64,000 bases of DNA from Thermomonas sp. (GTDB lineage: Bacteria > Pseudomonadota > Gammaproteobacteria > Xanthomonadales > Xanthomonadaceae). The DNA is taken from assembly GCF_041919455.1 (NCBI RefSeq), contig NZ_JAYRTQ010000005.1:33079-97078 (forward strand). Reading direction: 5' to 3'. Position 1 is the first letter of the stretch. The number at the start of each line of letters is the position of its first letter. Made by a program: the position numbers and the translations under genes. Positions 23,788 through 35,186 of this stretch are shown piece after piece. Below the pieces are notes generated by a model. The model saw nothing but the letters and a program-made list of their open reading frames with translations. It made no database searches and was not told the origin of the DNA.

Positions 23788-24900
23788 TTATCCCGGCAGC
23801 AGGGCGGCTTCCGAGGCGGTCTGCGACATGCGCTTCTGCACCTCGTCGCGCATCTGCGCCAGTTCGCCGCCGATCTGCTGGCGCTTGGCCATGCCCTCGC
23901 GATGGATCTCGCGCACTTCCTCGACGGTCTGGATCAGCTTGTCGTGGACGTGGCGCAGGGTCTCGATGTCGATCACCGAGCGCTGGTTGGCCTTGGCCGT
24001 GCCCACCGACGTGGCATGCACCAGGTCGGCGTTCTTGCGCATCAGTTCGTTGCTGGCATCGTCGATCGCGTTGGCCAGGTCGACCGCGTTGCGCTGGTCG
24101 GCCAGCGACAGCTGGATCGCGAACTGGTTTCGCCACATCGGGATGGTGATGTCGCGAACCGCGCTGAATTTCTCGATGAGCTGGATCGCGTTGGCCTGGA
24201 TCAGCCGGATCATCGGCAGGGTCTGGTCGGCGGCGTGCTGCAGCACCTGCAGGTCTGAGACGCGCTTGTCGAGCAGGCGCAGCGCGGTGTCCAGTTCGGC
24301 GCGCTGGATCCGGCTCTGCGGATCGTCCTGTCCGGCGAGTGCGGACAGGTCCTGCTGCAGTTCGGCGATGCGCACCCGGCCGGCGGCCACGTGGATACCC
24401 AGTGCGTGGCGTTCCTCAAGCACGATGCCGTGCATCTGGTCGTATTCGCGCACGCGCTGCTGCTGGGTGGCCTGGGTCTGGCCGACGTCGCGCATCAGCT
24501 GGTCGATCTGGCTGTTGGTCGAGCTGTACTTCTGCACCAGGTCGTCGCGCGTGGCCTTCAGCTTGTCGATCAGCGGGCCCAGGATCGGCAGCTTGGAGCG
24601 CTCGCCGAATGAGTCCAGGTTGAGGCTGCGCGCGATGCGCACCACTTCGCCGAGCTTCTCCCCGGAGTTGTCGAGGTCCGCATTGCGCACCTTGTCGAGC
24701 AACTGGGTGGAGAAGCTGCTGGTCTTGCCTGCCGCTTCGCGGCCGTAGCCATGCAGGTTGCCGGGCGTGATGTCCTGCAACGCCCGCGAGGTTTCCTGGA
24801 TCTTGCCGATGTCGGCGCTGGTCAGGCCCAGGTCGAGCAACGCTTTCTCGTCCAGCGCGGCCGGCAGCAGGGACGTGGATTCGGGGTTGTGCGTGGTCAT
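23788..24900 (-). CDS. telA: TelA (toxic anion resistance / YaaN) family protein
   Basis: 370 aa. ...MIRLIQANAIQLIEKF...IPMWRNQFAIQLSLA...VIDIETLRHVHDKLIQTVEEVREIHREGMAKRQQ aligns with B. subtilis YaaN/TelA (...QIRLIQNNDTLMSEKIQ...IPLWKSQMVLALGLE...IVDIETLVHTNNSLISTLDEVAKIQEEGRIKRRE). Confidence 0.8.
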   Translation of the reverse strand: MTTHNPESTSLLPAALDEKALLDLGLTSADIGKIQETSRALQDITPGNLHGYGREAAGKTSSFSTQLLDKVRNADLDNSGEKLGEVVRIARSLNLDSFGERSKLPILGPLIDKLKATRDDLVQKYSSTNSQIDQLMRDVGQTQATQQQRVREYDQMHGIVLEERHALGIHVAAGRVRIAELQQDLSALAGQDDPQSRIQRAELDTALRLLDKRVSDLQVLQHAADQTLPMIRLIQANAIQLIEKFSAVRDITIPMWRNQFAIQLSLADQRNAVDLANAIDDASNELMRKNADLVHATSVGTAKANQRSVIDIETLRHVHDKLIQTVEEVREIHREGMAKRQQIGGELAQMRDEVQKRMSQTASEAALLPG

Positions 24901-25586
24901 GGCGACTCCTGGGCGGCTGCGTGCGTTGGGGTTGCGGTTGGCGATTGCGTGAGGCCGGTGATGCCGGATTCGATCGATGCCACCAGCGTGGCGGCATCGC
25001 GCATCCGTGCTGCATCGTCCCGTCCTGCCAATGCAGCGCGATGCTGGACCAGCAGGCCTTCGACCTGCGGCAGCATGTGCTGATAACGGGCCGACAGTGC
25101 CTGCCCATTCTGCACCAGCACGCCGAGCTGGGTGGCAGTGAGCGTGCAGCCGAGGCGGCTGGATTCGAGCAGGCGCAGGCGCGTGTGATGGGTGGATGGA
25201 TCCGATGTGGTGGAAGCAAGGCCGGCGATGGCCGCATCGAATCCAGCGGCCAGCCCGGACAGGCGATCGCGCAACGAAGCAAGCGTGTGGTTGTGGCGTT
25301 CGAGTGCCTCGCCACGCTGGCGCGCCTGCAACACCAGCAGCGCGAGTTGCTCGCGCAGGGCGGTGGACTGCGCCTGCAGTTCGATGTCCCGGCCGAGCAG
25401 GCGGCCGAAGAAACCCACGCTTTTCCGCAAGGCACCCGCATCGGTCGACAACAGCACGGTGCGCAGGTCGCGCAGGGTCGCCTGGATGTCGTGCGCGGGC
25501 GACTGCAACGAAGCCGCCTCAGCCTGTGCGCGGCGCGCGGCATCGAGCAGGCTGGCGTCGTCGCGTGGAGTCTCCAGCGCGCTCAT
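24897..25586 (-). CDS. coiled-coil protein (229 aa) translationally coupled between giant ATPase and TelA (KlaA-like position?)
   Basis: ATGA overlaps at both ends. Heptad-rich. No recognisable domain. Confidence 0.55.
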   Translation of the reverse strand: MSALETPRDDASLLDAARRAQAEAASLQSPAHDIQATLRDLRTVLLSTDAGALRKSVGFFGRLLGRDIELQAQSTALREQLALLVLQARQRGEALERHNHTLASLRDRLSGLAAGFDAAIAGLASTTSDPSTHHTRLRLLESSRLGCTLTATQLGVLVQNGQALSARYQHMLPQVEGLLVQHRAALAGRDDAARMRDAATLVASIESGITGLTQSPTATPTHAAAQESP

Positions 25587-28500
25587 GACCCGTCGGTTTC
25601 GCCAGGCGGCTTCGCCCCGTCCGCTTTCCTCGCGTCCTCGGCCGCCTTGAACTTCAGCGCGCTGATGGTCCTCTCGAACGCACGTTCCTCTGGCGTGCGG
25701 ATGCGCGGCATGACCCGCTCAGCCGCATCGCGCGGCGCCGCGTTCGGCATGCCGCCGGCCTTCAGCGCCTCGACCAGTTCCAGCAGCGCCGAATGCAGGT
25801 GGTCCTGCCGCGCCAGGGTGCGCTCCAGGCCGTCGAGCAGCGGCTGGTGGGCGCTGCGCAGCAGGTCGCCGACGGGTGGCGCGGACGCTGCAACTGCGGC
25901 AGTGCTGGCCGTCGGCGTGGCGATGCGCGCCAGTGCGTCCAGCAACTCGCTCCAGGGCGGCGGTTGTGGTGAGACGGGCGCGGGTTCATCGCGCAGGCCC
26001 TGCAGGCCACCGGCGATGTCGGCCAGCTGCGCGACCATGCGCCCGCCGACATCGGCATCGTCCGCGCCCATCGCCTTGTTGCGCAGGAAGTCGGCCTTGA
26101 TCTGCGCCCAGCGCGCCTGCTGGTCCGGCGTCATCCGGTCAAGCAGTTCGCCGAGCTTGAGCAGGTTTTCCTCGGCACCTTGGGTGAGCAGTTGCGACTC
26201 GCCGAGGTAATGGTCGGCGATGACCTGGCGGAGCTCGGCATCGTTCATCACCGGCGAGATCTTTTCCGCCAGCTTGTTCATGTTGCGGTAGCTGCCCTGC
26301 AGCTTGAACGGTGGTTCCACGCGGTACTTGTCCGCCTGCGCGGCGCTGGCGATGTATTGCATGTTGACCTTGAACACCACTTCGCGGACCTGCAGCATCT
26401 TCTGCAGCACACCGACGATCTCGTTGATCTCGGCGCCGCTGTAGGCATGCGTCAGTGCATTGGTGGAGACCTCGCGGCCGCGCGCCTTGTCGACCAGCAG
26501 GTAGAGGTCGGCGAGATCGCGCGTGGCCAGCGGCGCGAGCACCGCATTGGAGGTAAGGCTGTTCTCGATGTAGCTGAGCAGGAACGTGTCTTCCATGCCG
26601 CCGAGCACGTCGCCCAAGTTGTAGATGTCGGCGCGGTTGGCCAGCATGTCCGGGATCTTGAAGGCCTCGCCGGACTCGGTGTACGGGTTGCCGGCCATCA
26701 CCACCGCGAACTTGCGTCCGCGCAGGTCGTAGGTGCGGGTGTTGCCGCGCCACACGCCTTCGATGCGACGGGTGCCGTCGCACAGCGAGATGAACTTCTG
26801 CAGGAATTCCGGATGGGTGTGCTGGATGTCGTCGACATACAGCATCACGTTGTTGCCCATCTCCAGCGCGAGATTCAACTTCTCCAATTCCTGGCGCGAG
26901 GTCGCGTCCGGCGCCTGCGCCGGGTCCAGTGAGCGCACCTGGTGGCCCAGCGACGGCCCGTTGATCTTCATGAAGACCAGGCCCAGCCGGTGCGCCACGT
27001 ATTCCATCAGCGTGGTCTTGCCGTAGCCGGGCGGGGAGATCAGCATCAGCAGGCCCATCAGGTCGCTGCGCTTGTCTTCCCCGACCGTGCCCATCTGCTT
27101 GGCGAGGTTGTCGCCGATCACGCGCAGGTAGACGTCGTTGATCAGCTTGTTGCGCACGAAGCTGGTCAGTGGCCGCGCCTTGAATTCCGACAGGCGCATC
27201 GTCTCGCGCTCGCGCTGCACGATGCGCGCGCGCACCTCCTGGTAGCGGCGGAATGCCGGGAGGAAGGTCGCCTGGTGCTGGCGCAGGCGCGATTGCAGGT
27301 CGTCGATGGCCAGGTGCAAGGTGCCGTCGACGATGCGCGCATGCTGCCCGAGCAGGCCGCTCGCATCCGCCATCAGGCGAACGTCAACGATGCGGTGCGG
27401 CAGCTTCGGGCCGTGCAGGTGCAGCGCCGCCGCTTCATGCGCGTAGGCGGCGAGGGCCGCATGTTCCGGACGTGCGACCAGTGCCTGCAGCCACTGCAGC
27501 AGCAACGACCATTGCGCGCCCGGACGATCCTGCAGGCGTTCCAGCGCCTGCTTGAACAAATCTTCGCTGCCGCTGGCGGCCAGTTGCACGCGCAGCGCAT
27601 CGAGCAGGTTCGCCGCGTAGCGCGTAAACGGCAGTTGGTCGGATTCCACGGTGATCGCGGCGATCAGGAACGTGGCGGCTTCGGCCTGGAGTCCATCTGC
27701 CAGTGGCAAGGCCTGTTCGGCGCGGAACTGTGCGACGGCGTCGGCGAGTTCATTCGCCAACGCGGTCGTCGCGGTCGCGTCCTGCAGGTGGCTGCGCACC
27801 GCCTTCGCATTGCGGATGCGTTCCAGCCAGCCGGTTTCAGGCGTGGCTTGGGCGTGCTGCCAGAACGCGGCGGCCAATGCGCGTGCATCGGCGGCATGCA
27901 CCAGCGGACCCGCCGGGCGATAGAGTGGCACCACCGCGCGCAGGATCAACGCGGCATCGTGGTCGTGGATGCCTTTCTCGTAGCCGTCACGATAGCGCGC
28001 GGAGGCGAATTCGCGCACGCGCGTCGCCAACGCGTCGGGATCGCCAACAAGGCGTTCCAGGGTGTCGATATCGAGGCCGTCACGGCCGGCCAGCGCGGCA
28101 TCGAGCAGTTGCCCGGCCAGGTATTCGCCGCGATACAGGTCCGGTGATTCGGATTCAAGCGTGACCTGCCAGAACGCACGCAACGCGGCGAGTTCCGGGT
28201 CGTGCAGCGGCGCCATGTAGTCGGTGCCGGTGAGGTGCACGGCCATGTCCTCGCCGCGCGGCAGCAGGGTCAGGTCGAGTGGCTGGGTGTTGACGCTGAA
28301 GCGGTGGCGCGGGCCCAGCTTGATGACGTTGCCGCCTTCCTCGAACAGGTCGCTGCGGTCGCGCAGCCCGCGCACGGCCTGGTCGCGCGCGGCCTTGATC
28401 CGCGATTCGATGTCGTCGGCCTTGACCGAGTCCTTCAGCGTGCGCAGGCGCTCGGCCAGCTCGCGCAGCTTCATCACCAGCGCATCGCCGGCAAAGAACG

Positions 28501-30922
28501 CATTGAGCTCGTCGGGATTGGTGAAGCGCTCGGTGCGTCGGCCAAGACCGTCGAAGATGCGATTGGCGGCATCGAGCACCGACCGCGCCTTGCGCTGGCG
28601 CTCGTCCATCAGCGCCTGGCGATGGGTCTCGAAGGTTTCCAGCAGTTCCTCGCGCTTGCCGAGGATGTCGCCGAGGAATTGTTCGTGCTCGCCGAACTGG
28701 CCCTCCAGTTCCTCCAGCTGCACCATCAGCCGCGAGAGCTGTTCGTCAGCGCGTTCCGGCGTGGTCGCCATGTCCAGCGCGCTGGCGACCGCCTGTGCGA
28801 ACAGCGAGAACTGCGCACCGAACTGCGCCACCGCCTCGGCGGAGCCCAGGGTCTTGCGCTTCTGCTCGGCGCGCGCGCGCGCCTGGTTCAACCTAGCGTA
28901 CAGGGCGGAGATCGCATCGACCACGCGGGTGCGCTGGGTGGCGTCGTCGACCTTCAGGCTGGCCATCAGCTCGGACAGGCGGTCGAGGTCGGCCGACATC
29001 GCCTGCATGCCGGCGAGTTGCTCGCCGAGCTGGGTGGCGGTCTGCGCTTTCTGCGCCTGTTCGTCCAGCGCCTGCAACGCCTGCTGCAGCGGCAGCAGGG
29101 CCTTGTCGCCGGCCAGGAAGTTGCCGGTCGCCACGCCCACGCGCTCGCTGGCCTGCTGCAGCTCGACACCCATCGCGTCGATCGCGGCGGTATCGATGTA
29201 GCGGTAATCGCGAATCGTCAGCAGGTGGCCGCGCTGCGCGGTGATCTCCGCCAGCGCATCGACGAAGGTCTGGATGCCGGTCCAGCCGTCGGGCTGCAGG
29301 CGACCGAGCAGGGCGCGCTGGGTCGCGCGCGCGCGGGTCATCGCAGCTTCCGACTGGCGCCGGACGTCCTGCACCTTGGCGAATTCGTCGAGCACCGATT
29401 CGCCGGTCGCGGCGATCTCATGGAGCAGGGTGGACAGGCCGCCGCATTGCGCGTCGTCGATCCAGTGGTGGATGTCGAACAGGCGCCGTGTGTTGTGCGC
29501 CAGCAGTTCGTAGCGCGCGGCGGAGACATCCTCGCGCTCGATGTCGCGGCCGAGGTCGAGCAGGTTGGACACTGCGCGCACCAGTTCGGCATTGCCGATC
29601 CGGCCCATGAAGCTGGTGCCCGGCGGACGGGCCGCCACGTATTCGTCGGAGGCGAACGGGGTCTGCCAGACCTGCATCTGGTGGACGCGGGTCGGGTCGT
29701 CGCTCTCGGCGTGGAAGAGCACCATGCGGCCGTCGTGCAGGCGTGCGTAACCGTGCGCGAGCACCGGCGGCTGCAGCCGGCGCTGGATCATGTTGTAGAC
29801 CAGCAGCGCGGACAGGCCGGAGTCGCGCTCGTAGAACACATAGAGCACGTCCTCGCCGTTCGGCGAGCGGATCATCCGCTTGTACTGCATGCCCTGCACG
29901 GCGGCGTCGAAGGCCTTGTGCTCGCCGTTCTGCAGGTAATAGCCGCCGGGAAAAATGATGCCGTGGTCTTCCGGCAACTGGATGCAGGCCTGGACGATCG
30001 CGTCCTGGCGCACCGCCTTGCCGGTCAATGTGTTGTAGACCAGCCCGCGCCAGGTGGTCTCGCGGTAGGGCAGCACCTTCAGCAGGATCAGCGCACCGAC
30101 CCTGGCGAAATGGATCTGCGCATCGTCGAGCGATTGCGTTTCGTCCTCGACCGATTCGCTGTAGATGCCGGCGCCGGTCTCGGTGTTGTTCTCGACCTTG
30201 AGGGTGAGGTCGCCGCCGGTGGTCTCGACGAACAGGGTGTCGAGGATGTTGAGGTGCGGGAAGCGCCCGCTGACTTCCAGCGACTTGGTGGCGCGGATCC
30301 ATTCGAAGTCGAACGGTGGCGGCAGCGCGATGTCGCGTTCGCCGCGCGCGTCGATGTAGCCGACCTCCCCGCTGCTGGCGATCGACCAGCGGAACACGCG
30401 CACGTCGTTCGCGTTGAGGCCGATCTGGAACGCGGCCAGCAGCTTGCCGTCGCGCACGATCAGCTGCAGCAGCCGCGCGTCCTTGTAGTACGCATAGAGT
30501 TCGGTGAAGTCGCGGATGAAGCCGGCATCGCCGAGGAAGCTGCCCGCGTGGTCGACCGGGGTGACGTCGTAGCCATCGCCGACCTCGACCAGGCGGTACA
30601 GGCCGAACACGTCGGACACGCTGGTAGTCGACTTCAGGCCCATGAAGACGTTGAAGCCGAACAGCAGCATGTCGCCGACCTGGACGATGTCGCGGCCCAC
30701 GCAGTTGTGCTCGCTGCGGATGCGCAAGCGGCCGACCAGCTCCATCTTGCTGTCGCCGAATTCCTGCAGGCGCTGCGCATTGATGCCTTGCGCGATCGCC
30801 TGCAGTTTCTGGCCCTGCTCGCCCAGCCGGCGCCGCAGCACTTCGTACGCGCCGCCCTGCGCGACCGCCTGGTCGACCAGCGAGTCGCCGCCCGTCGCCT
30901 GCTTGTCCGTGCCGTCCGTCAT
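25583..30922 (-). CDS. giant (1,779 aa) multidomain protein with embedded MoxR/dynein-class AAA+ ATPase module
   Basis: Walker A LISPPGYGKTTLMEY encoded at ~27.02-27.04 kb. Walker B VMLYVDDIQH. Sensor-1/Arg-finger region AVVMAGNPYTESGEAFKIPDMLANRADIYNL parallels MoxR 'ATQNP...PLPEAQLDRF'. Long coiled-coil middle region. P/A-rich C-terminus. Confidence 0.75.
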   Translation of the reverse strand: MTDGTDKQATGGDSLVDQAVAQGGAYEVLRRRLGEQGQKLQAIAQGINAQRLQEFGDSKMELVGRLRIRSEHNCVGRDIVQVGDMLLFGFNVFMGLKSTTSVSDVFGLYRLVEVGDGYDVTPVDHAGSFLGDAGFIRDFTELYAYYKDARLLQLIVRDGKLLAAFQIGLNANDVRVFRWSIASSGEVGYIDARGERDIALPPPFDFEWIRATKSLEVSGRFPHLNILDTLFVETTGGDLTLKVENNTETGAGIYSESVEDETQSLDDAQIHFARVGALILLKVLPYRETTWRGLVYNTLTGKAVRQDAIVQACIQLPEDHGIIFPGGYYLQNGEHKAFDAAVQGMQYKRMIRSPNGEDVLYVFYERDSGLSALLVYNMIQRRLQPPVLAHGYARLHDGRMVLFHAESDDPTRVHQMQVWQTPFASDEYVAARPPGTSFMGRIGNAELVRAVSNLLDLGRDIEREDVSAARYELLAHNTRRLFDIHHWIDDAQCGGLSTLLHEIAATGESVLDEFAKVQDVRRQSEAAMTRARATQRALLGRLQPDGWTGIQTFVDALAEITAQRGHLLTIRDYRYIDTAAIDAMGVELQQASERVGVATGNFLAGDKALLPLQQALQALDEQAQKAQTATQLGEQLAGMQAMSADLDRLSELMASLKVDDATQRTRVVDAISALYARLNQARARAEQKRKTLGSAEAVAQFGAQFSLFAQAVASALDMATTPERADEQLSRLMVQLEELEGQFGEHEQFLGDILGKREELLETFETHRQALMDERQRKARSVLDAANRIFDGLGRRTERFTNPDELNAFFAGDALVMKLRELAERLRTLKDSVKADDIESRIKAARDQAVRGLRDRSDLFEEGGNVIKLGPRHRFSVNTQPLDLTLLPRGEDMAVHLTGTDYMAPLHDPELAALRAFWQVTLESESPDLYRGEYLAGQLLDAALAGRDGLDIDTLERLVGDPDALATRVREFASARYRDGYEKGIHDHDAALILRAVVPLYRPAGPLVHAADARALAAAFWQHAQATPETGWLERIRNAKAVRSHLQDATATTALANELADAVAQFRAEQALPLADGLQAEAATFLIAAITVESDQLPFTRYAANLLDALRVQLAASGSEDLFKQALERLQDRPGAQWSLLLQWLQALVARPEHAALAAYAHEAAALHLHGPKLPHRIVDVRLMADASGLLGQHARIVDGTLHLAIDDLQSRLRQHQATFLPAFRRYQEVRARIVQRERETMRLSEFKARPLTSFVRNKLINDVYLRVIGDNLAKQMGTVGEDKRSDLMGLLMLISPPGYGKTTLMEYVAHRLGLVFMKINGPSLGHQVRSLDPAQAPDATSRQELEKLNLALEMGNNVMLYVDDIQHTHPEFLQKFISLCDGTRRIEGVWRGNTRTYDLRGRKFAVVMAGNPYTESGEAFKIPDMLANRADIYNLGDVLGGMEDTFLLSYIENSLTSNAVLAPLATRDLADLYLLVDKARGREVSTNALTHAYSGAEINEIVGVLQKMLQVREVVFKVNMQYIASAAQADKYRVEPPFKLQGSYRNMNKLAEKISPVMNDAELRQVIADHYLGESQLLTQGAEENLLKLGELLDRMTPDQQARWAQIKADFLRNKAMGADDADVGGRMVAQLADIAGGLQGLRDEPAPVSPQPPPWSELLDALARIATPTASTAAVAASAPPVGDLLRSAHQPLLDGLERTLARQDHLHSALLELVEALKAGGMPNAAPRDAAERVMPRIRTPEERAFERTISALKFKAAEDARKADGAKPPGETDGS

Positions 30923-30998: not shown

Positions 30999-33002
30999 TC
31001 ACGCGTTGTCTGCGTCGTTGGCCAGCGCCGGACGCAGTTCCACCCCGGCGACCTTGGACAGCAACTGCTGCAGGATGGGGCTGTGCTGCGCCAGGCCCTC
31101 CATCGCCTTGCCCAGCGACACGCCCTTGGTCAGCGCATCGAACACGCCGCCGTCGCCGCCGATCAGTTCGATGTTGGCACCGCGCAGCGCTTCGCCCAGT
31201 ACCTCGGCATTCTCCTTCGACACCTGGCGGCCGGCCTCGATCGATGCCAGTGCCTGCTTCAGCCCGGTCTCCAGCGCCATCCGGAATTCCTCGTGGCTGC
31301 GCGACTCGAGGCTCATCTTGTCCATCGCGTCGAACTTGGACGTCAGGCCCTCGGCTTCCGCGGCCATGCGCTTGCCGATCGAGGTCGCCTCTGCATCGCC
31401 CATCGCCTGCGTGGCATCGGCCTGGGCGCGGCCCATCTGCGCCTTGTTCTCCGCCTCGGCACGGCCCATCTGCGCCTTGCCGTCCGCTTCCGCGGCCAGC
31501 CGTTCGGCCAGCACCTTGGCGTCCGCGCTGCCCTGCTTGTAGTTGGCCTGCGCCTTGGCCTCGATCACCCGCGCCTCGGCCACGCCGACCTTCTCCACCG
31601 CCGCCGCATTCGCTTCGCGCACCTGCGCGTCCGCCAGGCCAGGCGCGGCGCGTTCGGCGCGCACGCCATCGGCCAGCATCTTCTTGGCTTCGGCCTGCTT
31701 GTTGGCGGCCAGCAATTCGGCATCGGCCAGCGTGGTCATCTCGACCGCGCGGTGCTTCGCCGCGGTTTCCGCCGCCTCGGCGGCCTTCACTTCCTTGACC
31801 AGGACTTCCTGCGCGTCGGCTTCCGCCTGCAGGATGGTGACCTGCTTGGCGCGGTCGGCCTCCGCCACCTCGCGGGTTTCCTTGATCTTCTCCTGGGCGA
31901 TGGCGACGGTCTGGTCGATGACCGTGCGCTCGCGGACGATGTTGGCGACCTCCATGCGGCCGTTCTCGACCGCCTTGTCGCGCTCGACGCCCTGCAACTG
32001 CACTTCGCGATCGGTGGTGACCTTCTCCAGTTGCTTGGCGCGCTCGACGCGCTCCTGCTCGATGGTCACCGCGCGCTGGCGGTTCTGCTCGGCCACTTCG
32101 ACCTGGCGCAGCTGTTCCTGCTCGCGGATCTTGATCAGTTCGTCGGACTGCAGGCGTGCGTTCTCGGAGATCAATCGCTGCTCTTCGCGCACGCGCGCGG
32201 TCTCGGCTTCCTCGCGGGCCTGCACGGATTCGATCTCACGCTTCTGGCGGGCTTCCGCCTCGGCCTGCTGACGCTCGAGCGCGAGCAGCGCTTCACGGGC
32301 GCTGACGTTCTTCTGGGTGATCTGCAGCTTCTCGTCCTGCTCCAGTTCGTTGGTCTTGACGTTCTGCAGCGCGGTCAGTTCGGTGATCTTGCGGATGCCT
32401 TCGGCATCCAGGATGTTGTTGTGATCGAGCAGGTTCTTGGGCGTCTGCTCGAGGTAGTCGATGGCCACGTCCTCCAGCACGTAGCCATTGAGGTCGTTGC
32501 CGATGACCTTGACGATCTCGTCGCGGAATTCCTGGCGCTTCTCGAACAGGTCGGTGAACTCGAACTTCTTGCCGACCGTCTTCAGCGCCTCGGAGAACTT
32601 GGCGTTGAACAGTTCATCCACCGCGTTCTTGTCGGAGGCGCGGTCCGCGCCGATCGCCTTGGCCACGCGCAGCACGTCGGCCTGGGTTTCGTTGACGCGC
32701 AGGTAGAACGCCACGGTGATGTCGGCGCGCATGTTGTCCTTGCAGATCAGGCCTTCCTTGCCGCGGCGATCCACCTGCAGGGTGATCAGGCTGATCTTCA
32801 TCAATTCGGCGCGGTAGAGGACCGGCACGATCAGCGCACCGGTGAAGTGCACCTTCGGCTGCGAGCTCATGTCGTTGACGATCAGGGCGGTGCCCTGGTC
32901 GACCTTCTTGTAGAAAGCCTTGAACAGGCCCATCAGGCCGAAAATGAACACCAGCAGGACGCCGAGGCCGACGAGGAAGGGTGCGATTTGAGCGAAGGTC
33001 AT
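30999..33002 (-). CDS. yqiK: flotillin-family SPFH protein (YqiK-like)
   Basis: 667 aa. N-terminal TM, SPFH/band-7 domain, then very long Ala/Glu-rich coiled coil. Confidence 0.85.
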   Translation of the reverse strand: MTFAQIAPFLVGLGVLLVFIFGLMGLFKAFYKKVDQGTALIVNDMSSQPKVHFTGALIVPVLYRAELMKISLITLQVDRRGKEGLICKDNMRADITVAFYLRVNETQADVLRVAKAIGADRASDKNAVDELFNAKFSEALKTVGKKFEFTDLFEKRQEFRDEIVKVIGNDLNGYVLEDVAIDYLEQTPKNLLDHNNILDAEGIRKITELTALQNVKTNELEQDEKLQITQKNVSAREALLALERQQAEAEARQKREIESVQAREEAETARVREEQRLISENARLQSDELIKIREQEQLRQVEVAEQNRQRAVTIEQERVERAKQLEKVTTDREVQLQGVERDKAVENGRMEVANIVRERTVIDQTVAIAQEKIKETREVAEADRAKQVTILQAEADAQEVLVKEVKAAEAAETAAKHRAVEMTTLADAELLAANKQAEAKKMLADGVRAERAAPGLADAQVREANAAAVEKVGVAEARVIEAKAQANYKQGSADAKVLAERLAAEADGKAQMGRAEAENKAQMGRAQADATQAMGDAEATSIGKRMAAEAEGLTSKFDAMDKMSLESRSHEEFRMALETGLKQALASIEAGRQVSKENAEVLGEALRGANIELIGGDGGVFDALTKGVSLGKAMEGLAQHSPILQQLLSKVAGVELRPALANDADNA

Positions 33003-33032: not shown

Positions 33033-33674
33033 CTAGTGCGCGTTGAACTGCGATTCGGAAATGACGAGATAGGTATTGGCGTTGGCGTCGTGCTCCAGCA
33101 GGACCACGCGGTCGCCGCGGACGAAGCGTTCCGGCGGCACAACCCGCACTTGCAGGATCAGGCCGGCACCGCCATCGGCGAATTCGGCGCGGCCTTGGTT
33201 GGCGTCGACCTCGGGCGATATCACCGTGCCGGCGCGGCCGAGGAGGCTGGGCGCGACCGGCGGACGCAGCTTGACCAGCAGCTTGCGCACCGGCCGCAGC
33301 AACAGCGAGGTGACGAACACGCCGGGCACCAGGGCGCCGACCAGGGTGGCGATGCCGCCGAGCAGGCGCAGCGGCGCCGGCAGGTGTTGCAGCACCAGCA
33401 GGTGCACGAAGTACGTGGCCATCCAGCCGAAGAACGACAGCACGGTGAGCACGATCATGATCGGCACGCCGCCCAGCCCGAGGCGGGCCAGCAGGCCGGC
33501 GCTGTCGGTGGCATGGTGGCTGTCGCCGCCGCCATCGCCACTCAACAGGCCGTCGATCGCGTCGATGTCGACCAGTCCCGTTGCGGCCAGCAACCAGTAG
33601 ACGACGCAGAACGCCAGCAGGATGCTGTAGGGCAGCGTGGGGAAGGTCAGCGCGGTGTGCAGGAATTCGGTCAT
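33033..33674 (-). CDS. yqiJ: NfeD-like membrane protein (YqiJ-like partner of flotillin)
   Basis: 213 aa. Multi-TM N-terminal half plus C-terminal OB-fold-like beta region. Immediately upstream of the flotillin gene, as in E. coli yqiJK. Confidence 0.7.
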   Translation of the reverse strand: MTEFLHTALTFPTLPYSILLAFCVVYWLLAATGLVDIDAIDGLLSGDGGGDSHHATDSAGLLARLGLGGVPIMIVLTVLSFFGWMATYFVHLLVLQHLPAPLRLLGGIATLVGALVPGVFVTSLLLRPVRKLLVKLRPPVAPSLLGRAGTVISPEVDANQGRAEFADGGAGLILQVRVVPPERFVRGDRVVLLEHDANANTYLVISESQFNAH

Positions 33675-33686
33675 GCGGCGTCCGGG

Positions 33687-34364
33687 TCAGCGCTTGGCGG
33701 TCGAGGGCGAAGGGGCTTTCGGCTTGATGCGTCTGGCGATGCGTTCCAGGACCTGGTCGGCCGCATCGCCCGCCGCCTCCTTCGGGGAAACGGGCGTGGC
33801 ACGGGAATCCGGCCCGCCCGTGGCCTTGCGCTGGCGTGCGCGTTGCGCCGGTGCCAGCGCCGGTTCCGGATGCGCGGTCTCCGTGGATCGGCGCCGCGCC
33901 ACGCTGGCCTGCGCCTGTTGCAGGCTGGCGCTTGCGCGCAGCGTATCGACCTGGTGTTTCAAACGGCGCAGCTGGTGTTCGCCCTGTTCGAGCACGTGCG
34001 CCAGTTCGGTTTCCCTGGCCTGCAGGGATTCCGCACGCTCGCGCTCCTCGTCCCGGTGGGACTGCAACGCCACGATCCGCTCCGCGGCCTCGCGCGCCTG
34101 GGTGCGCTTGCGCGTGTGCAGCGCCTGCTCGGCCTCTGCGGTGAGCGCGGCGATGCGCGTGCGCAGGTCCTGCTCGTGTTGCTCGCCGACGATGCGGGCG
34201 GCCTTGGTACTGGCGATGTCGGCGCGCACCCGATGCAGGGTGTCATCGAGGTCGCGGATGTCCTGGTCCAGCTGGCGCTCGACCTTGTCGCCGAACAGCG
34301 CATCGGAGACGCCGGCGACGTCCTCGCCCAGCCTCGCCAGCCATTGTCCGAGCAGGCCCGACAT
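33687..34364 (-). CDS. PspA/IM30 (phage-shock protein A / YjfJ-like) family protein
   Basis: ~226 aa from MSGLLGQWLARLGEDVAGVSDALFGDKVERQLDQDIRDLDDTLHRV... Pattern of PspA N-terminal helix then coiled coil. Start overlaps stop of upstream gene (TGATG). Confidence 0.8.
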   Translation of the reverse strand: MSGLLGQWLARLGEDVAGVSDALFGDKVERQLDQDIRDLDDTLHRVRADIASTKAARIVGEQHEQDLRTRIAALTAEAEQALHTRKRTQAREAAERIVALQSHRDEERERAESLQARETELAHVLEQGEHQLRRLKHQVDTLRASASLQQAQASVARRRSTETAHPEPALAPAQRARQRKATGGPDSRATPVSPKEAAGDAADQVLERIARRIKPKAPSPSTAKR

Positions 34365-34990
34365 CACGCCGCCGATTCCGCGGGCAGCAGGTAGCCGGCG
34401 AAGGCGTCGGTGGCGCCCAGCACGTTTTCCGCCAGGGTCTCGATTTCGAACATCAGGCTGGCCAGCCGCGAATGCGCGTCGAGCGCGCCGAACATGATGT
34501 AGCCGGGGACGCCGGCGACGGCCTGCACGGCAATGGTGGAGAGCGGCAGCAGCTTCTGCGTGCGCAGCACGTGCAGGTTGAACAGGGCGGGGTCGGCGAC
34601 CATCGCCACCGGCCACAGGTAGGCCTCGACGATGATCTGCCCGCCGACTGCGGCGACGAACAGCGACAGGTCGCCATGTTCGCGGAGGACCAGGTGCAGG
34701 CTCGGCTCCGCGCCCTCGATGGTCTCGATGCCGATCAGCCCGTCGCGGACCGCGCTGGTCTCGCCCAGTGCATGGCGGATCGTGGCGATGGTCCAGCCGG
34801 CCTCGGCGTGCATGGGTGCTGCCGAGTCGCGCTCGGGGTCGCGCATGGACTTTTCGATGGCGGCCAGCTCCGCTGCGTACTCGGGGCGGATCCACACGTC
34901 CTTCTTGACCAGGCCTTGCTCGCGCAGCCGCTCCCGATACCTGCGCTGGTGCTCGGTGGAGGTCTTCGGGGTGGCTTGACCATCTTTCAT
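34364..34990 (-). CDS. fusion protein: RHH-like N-terminal segment + YjfI/DUF2170-like domain, first gene of operon
   Basis: Probable start MKDGQATPKTSTEHQRRYRERLREQGLVKKDVWIRPEYAAELAAIEK (RHH-like). C-terminal ~130 aa resembles E. coli YjfI, which precedes the PspA paralog yjfJ. ORF table starts at a TTG (35026) inside the palindrome. Confidence 0.5.
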   Translation of the reverse strand: MKDGQATPKTSTEHQRRYRERLREQGLVKKDVWIRPEYAAELAAIEKSMRDPERDSAAPMHAEAGWTIATIRHALGETSAVRDGLIGIETIEGAEPSLHLVLREHGDLSLFVAAVGGQIIVEAYLWPVAMVADPALFNLHVLRTQKLLPLSTIAVQAVAGVPGYIMFGALDAHSRLASLMFEIETLAENVLGATDAFAGYLLPAESAA

Positions 34991-35020
34991 GTAATTGAAT
35001 CTATTTCTTACATGAAAGAT
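34982..35020. promoter_or_regulatory. AT-rich perfect inverted repeat operator/promoter at head of the PspA-flotillin-TelA operon
   Basis: ATCTTTCATGTAA-N13-TTACATGAAAGAT: 13-bp perfect arms with 13-bp AT-rich spacer. Left arm contains the ATG of the first gene. Lowest-GC stretch in the locus. Lies between this operon and divergent ssb. Confidence 0.5.
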
Positions 35021-35186
35021 CGTCAAGCGGTTTCTGGCGAGGATCCCGCCAGCTCCGTCGTGGAGGCCTGCCGGGTGTGCGTGGATTTCCTACCTAGTCC
35101 CACGGCGCCGCCCGACTGCGCCGGGGCCGGCCGCTATACTCCACTGTCAGTCGTCCGATCCGGACGAAACCGAGTCGAGGAAGAAC

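Follow-up and report, generated by a model that had tools for sequence, protein, structure and literature searches.

A giant DUF3686/BacE-family ATPase encoded beside a flotillin in Thermomonas is a candidate remodeler of membrane scaffolds

We analyzed a giant AAA+ ATPase of 1,779 amino acids (aa) encoded in a 64,000-nucleotide stretch of the Thermomonas sp. genome (contig NZ_JAYRTQ010000005.1, positions 33,079 to 97,078; hereafter the window; GC content 67%). The protein is close to certain to belong to the known DUF3686/BacE family, which Pfam and two papers of 2024 already cover, and its operon context is equally firm. The gene is the fifth of seven in a tightly packed minus-strand cluster that encodes, in order, a BacA-like protein, a PspA-like protein, a YqiJ/NfeD-like protein, a YqiK-type flotillin, the ATPase, a 229-aa TelA-like protein and TelA. 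Substrate and mode of action are much less certain. By analogy with better-known AAA+ machines, we regard the chances as evenly balanced that the giant ATPase is a membrane-scaffold remodeler in a seven-gene envelope-stress operon.

AAA+ machines are paired with membrane-scaffold polymers in the cases of Vps4 with ESCRT-III and FtsH with HflK/C, where PspA represents the ESCRT-III type of scaffold and flotillin and HflK/C represent the SPFH type. The window ATPase is like both systems in being an AAA+ protein encoded with a PspA- or SPFH-type scaffold, a likeness that we use as a functional analogy only. We know of no dedicated ATPase for bacterial flotillins.

Family membership and distribution

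The open reading frame (ORF) at 25583-30922, proposed from the sequence alone in an original prediction that left its strand unstated, is borne out as a minus-strand gene, and a plus-strand reading of the same interval was rejected on its many stops. The GC content at third codon positions (GC3) is 0.89, similar to that of the neighboring genes, and together with a Pfam DUF3686 match at E 4e-191 this value establishes a real gene and no chance ORF. No transmembrane segment is predicted in the ATPase, and the protein is cytoplasmic. The DUF3686 match spans aa 40-486 and carries the Pfam description 'ATPase involved in DNA repair', and a second family, DUF7902, is assigned at aa 607-690 (E 1e-24), so that the flanking domains first called uncharacterised are not in fact unclassified. 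Pfam AAA models are weak on this protein, and only AAA_5 (aa 1292-1415) spans the whole nucleotide-binding domain.

Searching 5.8 billion proteins, we obtained more than 5,000 clusters of homologs at 90% identity, named in databases 'DNA repair ATPase', 'AAA family ATPase' or 'MoxR-like ATPase', and the closest genome locus is 93% identical. Full-length homologs that share this Pfam architecture are found in Pseudomonas, Stenotrophomonas, Xanthomonas, Providencia, Xenorhabdus and Comamonadaceae, and also in Bacteroidota, Verrucomicrobiota, Planctomycetota and Sumerlaeia, where they are 32-37% identical to P0248, a Bacteroidota protein that served as a second query. Sampled homologs from these distant phyla share 24-38% identity with the window ATPase over the first 1,200 residues. 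Every one of the 240 matches listed combines the DUF3686 head, DUF7902 and a C-terminal AAA module in a single polypeptide of 1,600-1,900 aa. The ATPase module alone, used as query in a filter-only HMMER scan of 1.84 billion representatives, matched 941 clusters at E <= 1e-3 (~940 at 50% identity), and since the matches listed are all family members or fragments of them, the module is very distinct in sequence.

In three Longimicrobium-labeled metagenome-assembled genomes (Gemmatimonadota; L020, L028 and L033), the flotillin and giant ATPase are 64-69% identical to the window genes in their best tblastn segments, about as close to the window as those of Stenotrophomonas. Such identity to gammaproteobacterial genes suggests recent horizontal transfer or mis-binned contigs.

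Conserved gene neighborhood

Neighborhood counts from the 80 closest genome loci identify the genes that travel with the ATPase. A flotillin-like gene lies directly upstream in 78/78 loci with enough upstream sequence and a YqiJ-like gene in 76/77, and the BacA-like and PspA-like pair is present upstream in about half of the 80. The adjacency of ATPase and flotillin spans at least five phyla: of six distant genomes, five have a flotillin gene (37-45% identical) directly upstream of that for the ATPase, with such neighbors found in Planctomycetota, Verrucomicrobiota, Bacteroidota and Sumerlaeia, and a YqiJ-like gene precedes the flotillin gene in four of the six, one of these homologs carrying Pfam YqiJ_N. 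On these close and distant counts the flotillin and its YqiJ-like companion are the invariant genetic partner of the ATPase, and TelA is not. The original prediction had looked downstream, to TelA; the upstream partners that it overlooked (flotillin, YqiJ/NfeD-like, PspA-like and BacA-like) are far more conserved.

Neither the flotillin nor the YqiJ-like protein has a Pfam, NCBIfam or PDB sequence match, profile searches included. We assign the flotillin from its hhalign alignment to Escherichia coli YqiK (probability 99.8, E 1e-29), and the 213-aa membrane protein gives a weak hhalign match to E. coli YqiJ (E 1.6e-4, probability 50). The PspA-like protein passes the PspA_IM30 cut-off with 49.7 bits against 33.9, and its start is an internal ATG at 34364 that overlaps the upstream stop in TGATG. 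A hairpin between the flotillin and ATPase genes was rejected as a real element, its folding being no better than that of shuffled sequence (z = 0.53).

Two distant loci carry additional genes around this core. In a verrucomicrobial genome (L084; 1151-3750, 14444-21151), a PspA_IM30 gene with its own 559-aa classical AAA gene adjoins the YqiJ-flotillin-ATPase triad in divergent orientation, and the triad is closely followed by an RNA-repair cluster, RtcR-Ro60-RtcB-RtcA. In P. aeruginosa, PA3728-PA3732 rise with rtc genes (PMC13637947) and the flotillin PaFlo8 is embedded in the rtc locus (PMC13086221); the association of rtc genes with the giant ATPase may be a coincidence or a recurring link. 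In Dysgonomonas (L085; 5673-6902, 11853-12374), the flotillin and giant ATPase genes are separated by a Peptidase_M54 (archaemetzincin-like) gene and a 184-aa gene, and a 173-aa gene overlaps the ATPase stop, representing further lineage-specific accessory genes.

The AAA+ module

We aligned 92 homologs from Pseudomonadota, Bacteroidota, Verrucomicrobiota and Planctomycetota and used this alignment to measure conservation and to build two AlphaFold models, both of the monomer (mean predicted local distance difference test score, pLDDT, 85.7 and 84.4). Conservation peaks at 0.8-0.9 over aa 1245-1620, is substantial in the head and is absent in the tail. Within the peak, the Walker A, Walker B and sensor-1/arginine-finger motifs proposed from sequence were confirmed at aa 1297, 1361 and 1410, and residues K1302, D1364, D1365, N1412 and R1430 are invariant across the alignment. 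The Walker B motif reads VMLYVDD, with the first aspartate retained and the catalytic glutamate replaced by an invariant D1365 in 92/92 sequences. The sensor-1 polar residue, arginine finger, alpha-beta-alpha core and helical lid are all present, and from these motifs the ATPase has a single MoxR/dynein-like AAA+ module that is apparently catalytically competent.

The original prediction had placed this module in the helix-2-insert clade (MoxR/midasin/dynein). Placement by sequence was set aside: searches of the PDB with the protein and with the 92-sequence profile align only ~40 residues at the P-loop, with RuvB and p97 as the matched proteins, and do not allow a clade to be assigned. In the structural models, a pre-sensor-1 beta-hairpin with strands at aa 1386-1391 and 1394-1399 (E207-212 and E215-220 in segment numbering) stands just ahead of the sensor-1 strand with pLDDT >90 and a conserved sequence, R.IEGV..G...TYD. 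The top structural matches for the ATPase core and lid are CbbQ and NorQ, and the nearest structural and profile neighbors of the module fall in the helix-2-insert clade. At the position of the helix-2 insert itself stand a short helix at aa 1322-1325 and a 14-residue loop at aa 1326-1339 that is conserved and modeled with high confidence, and DSSP assigns no strands of a beta-hairpin there in the AlphaFold model. From the modeled pre-sensor-1 hairpin and the invariant residues, the MoxR/midasin/dynein placement therefore survives structural comparison, with CbbQ/NorQ and AAA_5 matches on its side and with the caveat that a loop stands where the clade's helix-2 beta-hairpin was expected.

The module shares with MoxR proteins (CbbQ, NorQ and RavA) and with dynein and midasin modules the core and lid fold, the pre-sensor-1 hairpin, an NP..G...P....R pattern and the AAA_5 match. 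It differs from these proteins in being the only AAA+ module of a 1,779-aa chain, in following ~1,240 other residues, and in having a DD Walker B and no VWA partner, whereas a stand-alone MoxR ATPase has ~300-350 aa and is paired with a VWA/MIDAS protein. Pfam detects no VWA/MIDAS domain in the ATPase or in the scanned operon genes, and because of this missing partner and its size the ATPase is not a strict member of the MoxR family.

Relation to described operons

Ravi et al. 2024 described a CesT/Tir-PspA-band-7-AAA+ operon type with a suggested role in the assembly or remodeling of membrane protein complexes, reported that an abbreviated flotillin-YqiJ-ATPase form is widely distributed, and grouped these ATPases with PspA-associated chaperones (PMC11237479). 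The window operon agrees with this operon type and domain description, the wide abbreviated form is also seen here, and a DUF2170 gene followed by a PspA-family gene stands at the operon head, as in that operon and in the bac operon of Pseudomonas. In contrast to our analysis, that paper has 0 mentions of TelA, makes no AAA+ clade placement and gives the non-ATPase part as a coiled coil plus propeller; to that part our models add a small beta domain and a conserved helical domain in which an H-D-x-D motif is invariant.

In P. aeruginosa PA14, the genes bacABCDEF are co-transcribed by reverse-transcription PCR, PA14_16190 has been renamed bacE, and BacB to BacF are up 6- to 13-fold in a bacA transposon mutant; the same study proposes no function for BacE (PMC10948618). 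PA3728-PA3732 are co-regulated in another proteome (PMC13637947), and PA14_16180 and PA14_16160 are the flotillin PaFlo3 and a short NfeD protein (PMC13086221). The window ATPase shares its Pfam architecture with BacE (PA14_16190 / PA3728) of this 'biofilm-associated cluster' and, in the best tblastn segment, is 64% identical to the protein encoded at the equivalent place in the P. paraeruginosa operon, the match covering residues 2-1699 of 1,779. The upstream order is likewise the same, with BacA (DUF2170), BacB (PspA-like), BacC (short NfeD/YqiJ-like) and BacD (flotillin PaFlo3), and from gene order we infer that the gene at locus L034 is the PA3728 ortholog. The Pseudomonas and window operons differ downstream, where Pseudomonas has the PLD/HKD gene bacF and the window has a short TelA-like gene and TelA. 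Our literature search found no paper mentioning DUF3686 and none joining PspA, TelA, flotillin and AAA+.

Proposed function and alternative explanations

We propose, by analogy, that the ATPase would form a ring as other AAA+ proteins with a single module do, probably of six subunits, with long N-terminal arms and propeller heads that would dock on a cytoplasmic flotillin assembly and, where present, also on PspA or TelA polymers. ATP hydrolysis would power the assembly, disassembly or recycling of these scaffolds in envelope stress, making the ATPase a bacterial counterpart of Vps4 on ESCRT-III or of FtsH with the SPFH cage HflK/C, and TelA with its short paralog in this lineage and the PLD-like BacF in Pseudomonas would be interchangeable accessory modules. 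A motor is supported by the AAA+ module being the most conserved region of the ATPase and by its invariant nucleotide-site residues. A more specific form of the proposal is that DUF3686/BacE proteins are the dedicated ATP-driven assembly and disassembly motor of flotillin cages at the cytoplasmic membrane face, with propeller-tipped arms that grip SPFH proteins and with PspA and TelA proteins as co-substrates or adaptors; we advance this form tentatively and rate it as possible but doubtful. If it holds, TelA would act in membrane repair as a polymer-forming protein, and the machine that handles flotillin would handle it too.

Several points weigh against scaffold remodeling. The proposed mechanism draws on gene neighborhood and analogy. 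Because the DD Walker B is family-wide, the site may hydrolyze ATP slowly or serve regulation. The usual targets of MoxR-type ATPases are soluble enzyme complexes, on which they work with a VWA partner, and such a partner is missing here. The distant homolog of Aureibacter has no flotillin gene adjoining its ATPase gene. In P. aeruginosa, paFlo3 mutant phenotypes are only marginal (PMC13086221).

The substrate could instead be the PspA-like polymer of the ESCRT-III superfamily, with the ATPase as a Vps4 analog that disassembles PspA rods and with flotillin as a membrane recruiter only. The PspA-family gene that shares the operon in the window and in roughly half of the close loci, the PspA gene beside the triad in the verrucomicrobial genome, and the classing of these ATPases with PspA-associated chaperones by Ravi et al. 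(PMC11237479) all argue for this substrate, which we nevertheless rate as unlikely. A comparably small share of our confidence goes to a nucleotide-regulated tether or scaffold that is no processive remodeler, in which arms and propeller organize flotillin platforms and the degenerate DD Walker B serves as a slow switch; here the invariant Walker A lysine, sensor-1 asparagine, arginine finger and pre-sensor-1 hairpin, in the most conserved module of the protein, form the pattern expected of an active motor.

The best structural matches, CbbQ and NorQ, and the AAA_5 match also raise the idea of a MoxR-type maturation chaperone that inserts cofactors or activates an enzyme as those two proteins do, with the membrane proteins as bystanders. 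This idea is improbable in our judgment: the lack of a VWA/MIDAS partner or domain applies to the ATPase and scanned operon genes alike, no candidate client enzyme is conserved in the close or distant neighborhoods, and the architecture is far from that of 300-350 aa MoxR proteins. We give similarly little credence to an anti-phage or conflict system in which the large ATPase is a sensor for membrane-acting or HKD-nuclease-like effectors, an explanation to which the swapped downstream modules (PLD/HKD or TelA pair), resembling the exchange of defense effectors, and the fast evolution of the 229-aa gene would lend support, but PADLOC gives no significant match for any operon protein, gene order is constant across Pseudomonas species and Lysobacteraceae genera, and the P. 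aeruginosa cluster responds to stress and to bacA mutation. Least credible of all is the DNA repair ATPase of the NCBI and UniRef names, whose sole support is those homolog names and the Pfam DUF3686 description line, since weak SMC/Rad50 matches belong to the neighboring PspA-like helical protein and not to the ATPase, no DNA-binding or DNA-processing domain appears by Pfam, NCBIfam, PDB sequence or fold search, and the conserved neighbors are membrane-associated proteins, all of which suggests a name without visible basis in domains, fold or context.

This ATPase family bears on the question of how bacterial flotillins and PspA/ESCRT-III-like proteins are assembled and recycled. Present in the pathogens P. 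aeruginosa, Stenotrophomonas, Providencia and Xanthomonas, large, and fixed as a gene beside one flotillin subfamily across phyla, the family is for these reasons the obvious candidate for a flotillin motor. A giant ATPase in this position will not surprise specialists, and it offers a good, directly testable candidate for a motor associated with flotillin and PspA.

Domains outside the ATPase core

The original prediction had divided the ~1,250 residues ahead of the ATPase into a beta-rich head and a very long coiled coil. The head stands and is modeled as propeller-like; the coiled coil gives way to a rod of helical bundles, with longest helices of ~57 residues, followed by the small beta domain and a globular helical domain (Table 1). 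Foldseek matches to clathrin, IFT-A and nucleoporins have TM-scores of ~0.1, a similarity at the level of the propeller only, and homology to membrane coats was rejected on that ground.

The region at aa 866-1173 contains invariant residues H896, W918, E925, R931, Y981, G984, H986, D987, D989 and R1014, including an invariant Y-x2-G-x-H-D-x-D motif in the globular helical domain. We found no family or fold match for this region, which may bind a metal or ligand or form a second enzymatic center. The proline- and alanine-rich tail was correctly anticipated: it is 19% alanine and 11% proline, with conservation of ~0.2 and many gaps.

Table 1. Positions of the operon genes, the domains and motifs of the giant ATPase, and the putative promoter in the window
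Feature	Position	Strand	Residues	Details
Giant AAA+ ATPase gene (BacE / DUF3686 family)	25583..30922	minus	1,779 aa	ATG start, TGA stop
Conserved helix			aa 25-55	Ahead of propeller-like head; AlphaFold model
Beta-propeller-like head	29663..30742	minus	aa 61-420	Core of DUF3686; ~28 beta strands
Helical rod	28352..29611	minus	aa 438-857	Long helices; contains DUF7902
Small beta domain and globular helical domain	27404..28327	minus	aa 866-906 and aa 931-1173	AlphaFold model
AAA+ module	26063..27190	minus	aa 1245-1620	With lid and conserved C-terminal helical extension
Walker A	27011..27034	minus	aa 1297-1304	PPGYGKTT; K1302 and T1303 invariant
Walker B variant	26819..26842	minus	aa 1361-1368	LYVDDIQH; DD replaces usual DE
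Pre-sensor-1 beta-hairpin	26726..26767	minus	aa 1386-1399	
Sensor-1 and arginine-finger stretch	26615..26695	minus	aa 1410-1436	AGNPYTESGEAFKIPDMLANRADIYNL at aa 1410
Ala/Pro-rich tail	25586..25975	minus	aa 1650-1779	Unconserved
229-aa helical protein, short divergent TelA-like (probable)	24897..25586	minus	229 aa	Invariant GRLxGxD (consensus GRLLGRD) at aa 61-67
TelA (toxic anion resistance family)	23788..24900	minus	370 aa	Pfam TelA E 6e-71
YqiK-type flotillin (SPFH)	30999..33002	minus	667 aa	One N-terminal hydrophobic segment; hhalign
YqiJ / short-NfeD-like membrane protein	33033..33674	minus	213 aa	Several hydrophobic segments
PspA/IM30-family protein (BacB / YjfJ-like)	33687..34364	minus	225 aa	Pfam PspA_IM30
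YjfI/BacA-like protein (DUF2170, CesT/Tir-like)	34364..35026	minus		N-terminal ribbon-helix-helix-like extension; Pfam and NCBIfam
Putative sigma-70 promoter	34985-35026	minus		TTGACG, 17 nt, TAGATT, with two near-palindromic TTACATGTAA-like boxes; read from sequence

Downstream genes

Both ATGA stop/start overlaps seen in the original prediction are confirmed, one joining the ATPase stop to the 229-aa start (GGGTCATGAGCG at 25583-25586) and one joining the 229-aa stop to the TelA start (GCCATGACC at 24897-24900), and Pfam confirms that the second downstream gene encodes TelA. Of 18 related loci, 12 have the first overlap and at least 10 join the 229-aa stop to the TelA start in an NTGA overlap. 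Because the overlaps recur across loci, translational coupling of ATPase, 229-aa protein and TelA is a conserved feature; the stoichiometric co-production once proposed does not follow, as overlapping stop and start codons show coupling and not stoichiometry.

The 229-aa protein evolves fast, with 24-30% identity where TelA keeps 60-79%. The window protein has no Pfam match of its own and is negative against TelA in BLASTP, and hhalign of the 229-aa and TelA family profiles reaches 22% probability only, over a shared RD..LP.WRxQ motif. Weak matches to Pfam TelA appear in 6/17 family members (best E 0.003). P0433, which belongs to the family over its full length (hhalign probability 99.85), scores 34.4 bits with the Pfam TelA model (PF05816), above the cut-off of 30, and by this sole route, with BLASTP negative and the profile-profile comparison weak, the 229-aa protein is probably a short, divergent TelA paralog.

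Among the close loci, the downstream module includes a PLD/HKD gene in 30 (Pseudomonas included; PLDc_2 1e-29) and TelA in 31, the TelA-bearing loci belonging to Lysobacteraceae, Stenotrophomonas and Xanthomonas. The two modules are not mutually exclusive, since four Lysobacter loci (L009, L011, L014 and L026) carry both after the ATPase. No PLD/HKD gene (BacF) lies downstream of the window ATPase, where the 229-aa gene and TelA stand, and this replacement of the PLD gene by a TelA pair is a variant of the operon specific to the lineage, of which the papers cited here give no description. In Listeria and Bacillus, tolerance of nisin and cationic peptides has been connected with TelA/YaaN (PMC12791056), and through these phenotypes TelA fits the membrane-stress theme of the operon. 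These loci genetically tie TelA-family proteins to flotillin/PspA envelope-stress machinery in Lysobacteraceae and allies.

Operon head and promoter

The first gene of the operon encodes a protein, read as a BacA-like regulator or chaperone, that matches Pfam DUF2170 (E 2.7e-40) and the NCBIfam model 'biofilm formation regulator BacA' (E 2.3e-73; 246 bits, under the equivalog cut-off of 300). In the listed ORF, aa 24-71 match NCBIfam UrfF (1.6e-4) and Pfam MazE-like (0.039), both ribbon-helix-helix-type repressors.

A sigma-54 promoter, as proposed for the Pseudomonas bac operon, is not evident here. The sigma-54-like TGGCGGGATCCTCGCC at 35047-35062 (minus), upstream of the operon, agrees with 8/12 consensus positions, and a scan of 42 related upstream regions gave partial matches of 4-10/12 at inconsistent positions relative to the start codon, with five regions lacking a candidate; matches are thus low and inconsistent in position across 43 upstream regions.

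The upstream sequence reads instead as a putative sigma-70 promoter (Table 1). Of its two TTACATGTAA-like boxes, one lies in the spacer between the -35 and -10 elements (35017-35008) and the other (34994-34985) contains a conserved ATG, 7 nt past the -10 element, a spacing that suggests a leaderless mRNA for the operon head. Since the listed TTG start at 35026 lies in the -35 hexamer, the true start of the BacA-like protein is probably the ATG at 34990. The promoter layout is conserved in Lysobacteraceae and is also found ahead of the yjfI/bacA-like gene at L002, L005, L009, L011, L023, L025, L026, L034, L035, L046, L052, L062, L066, L068 and L075; Pseudomonas and others have a variant, with two or three T(T/C)ACATGT(G/A)A boxes round a similar promoter. 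The ribbon-helix-helix-like extension and the palindromic boxes, together with the published 6- to 13-fold derepression of BacB-F in the bacA mutant, suggest that BacA-like proteins may be autorepressors of their operons.

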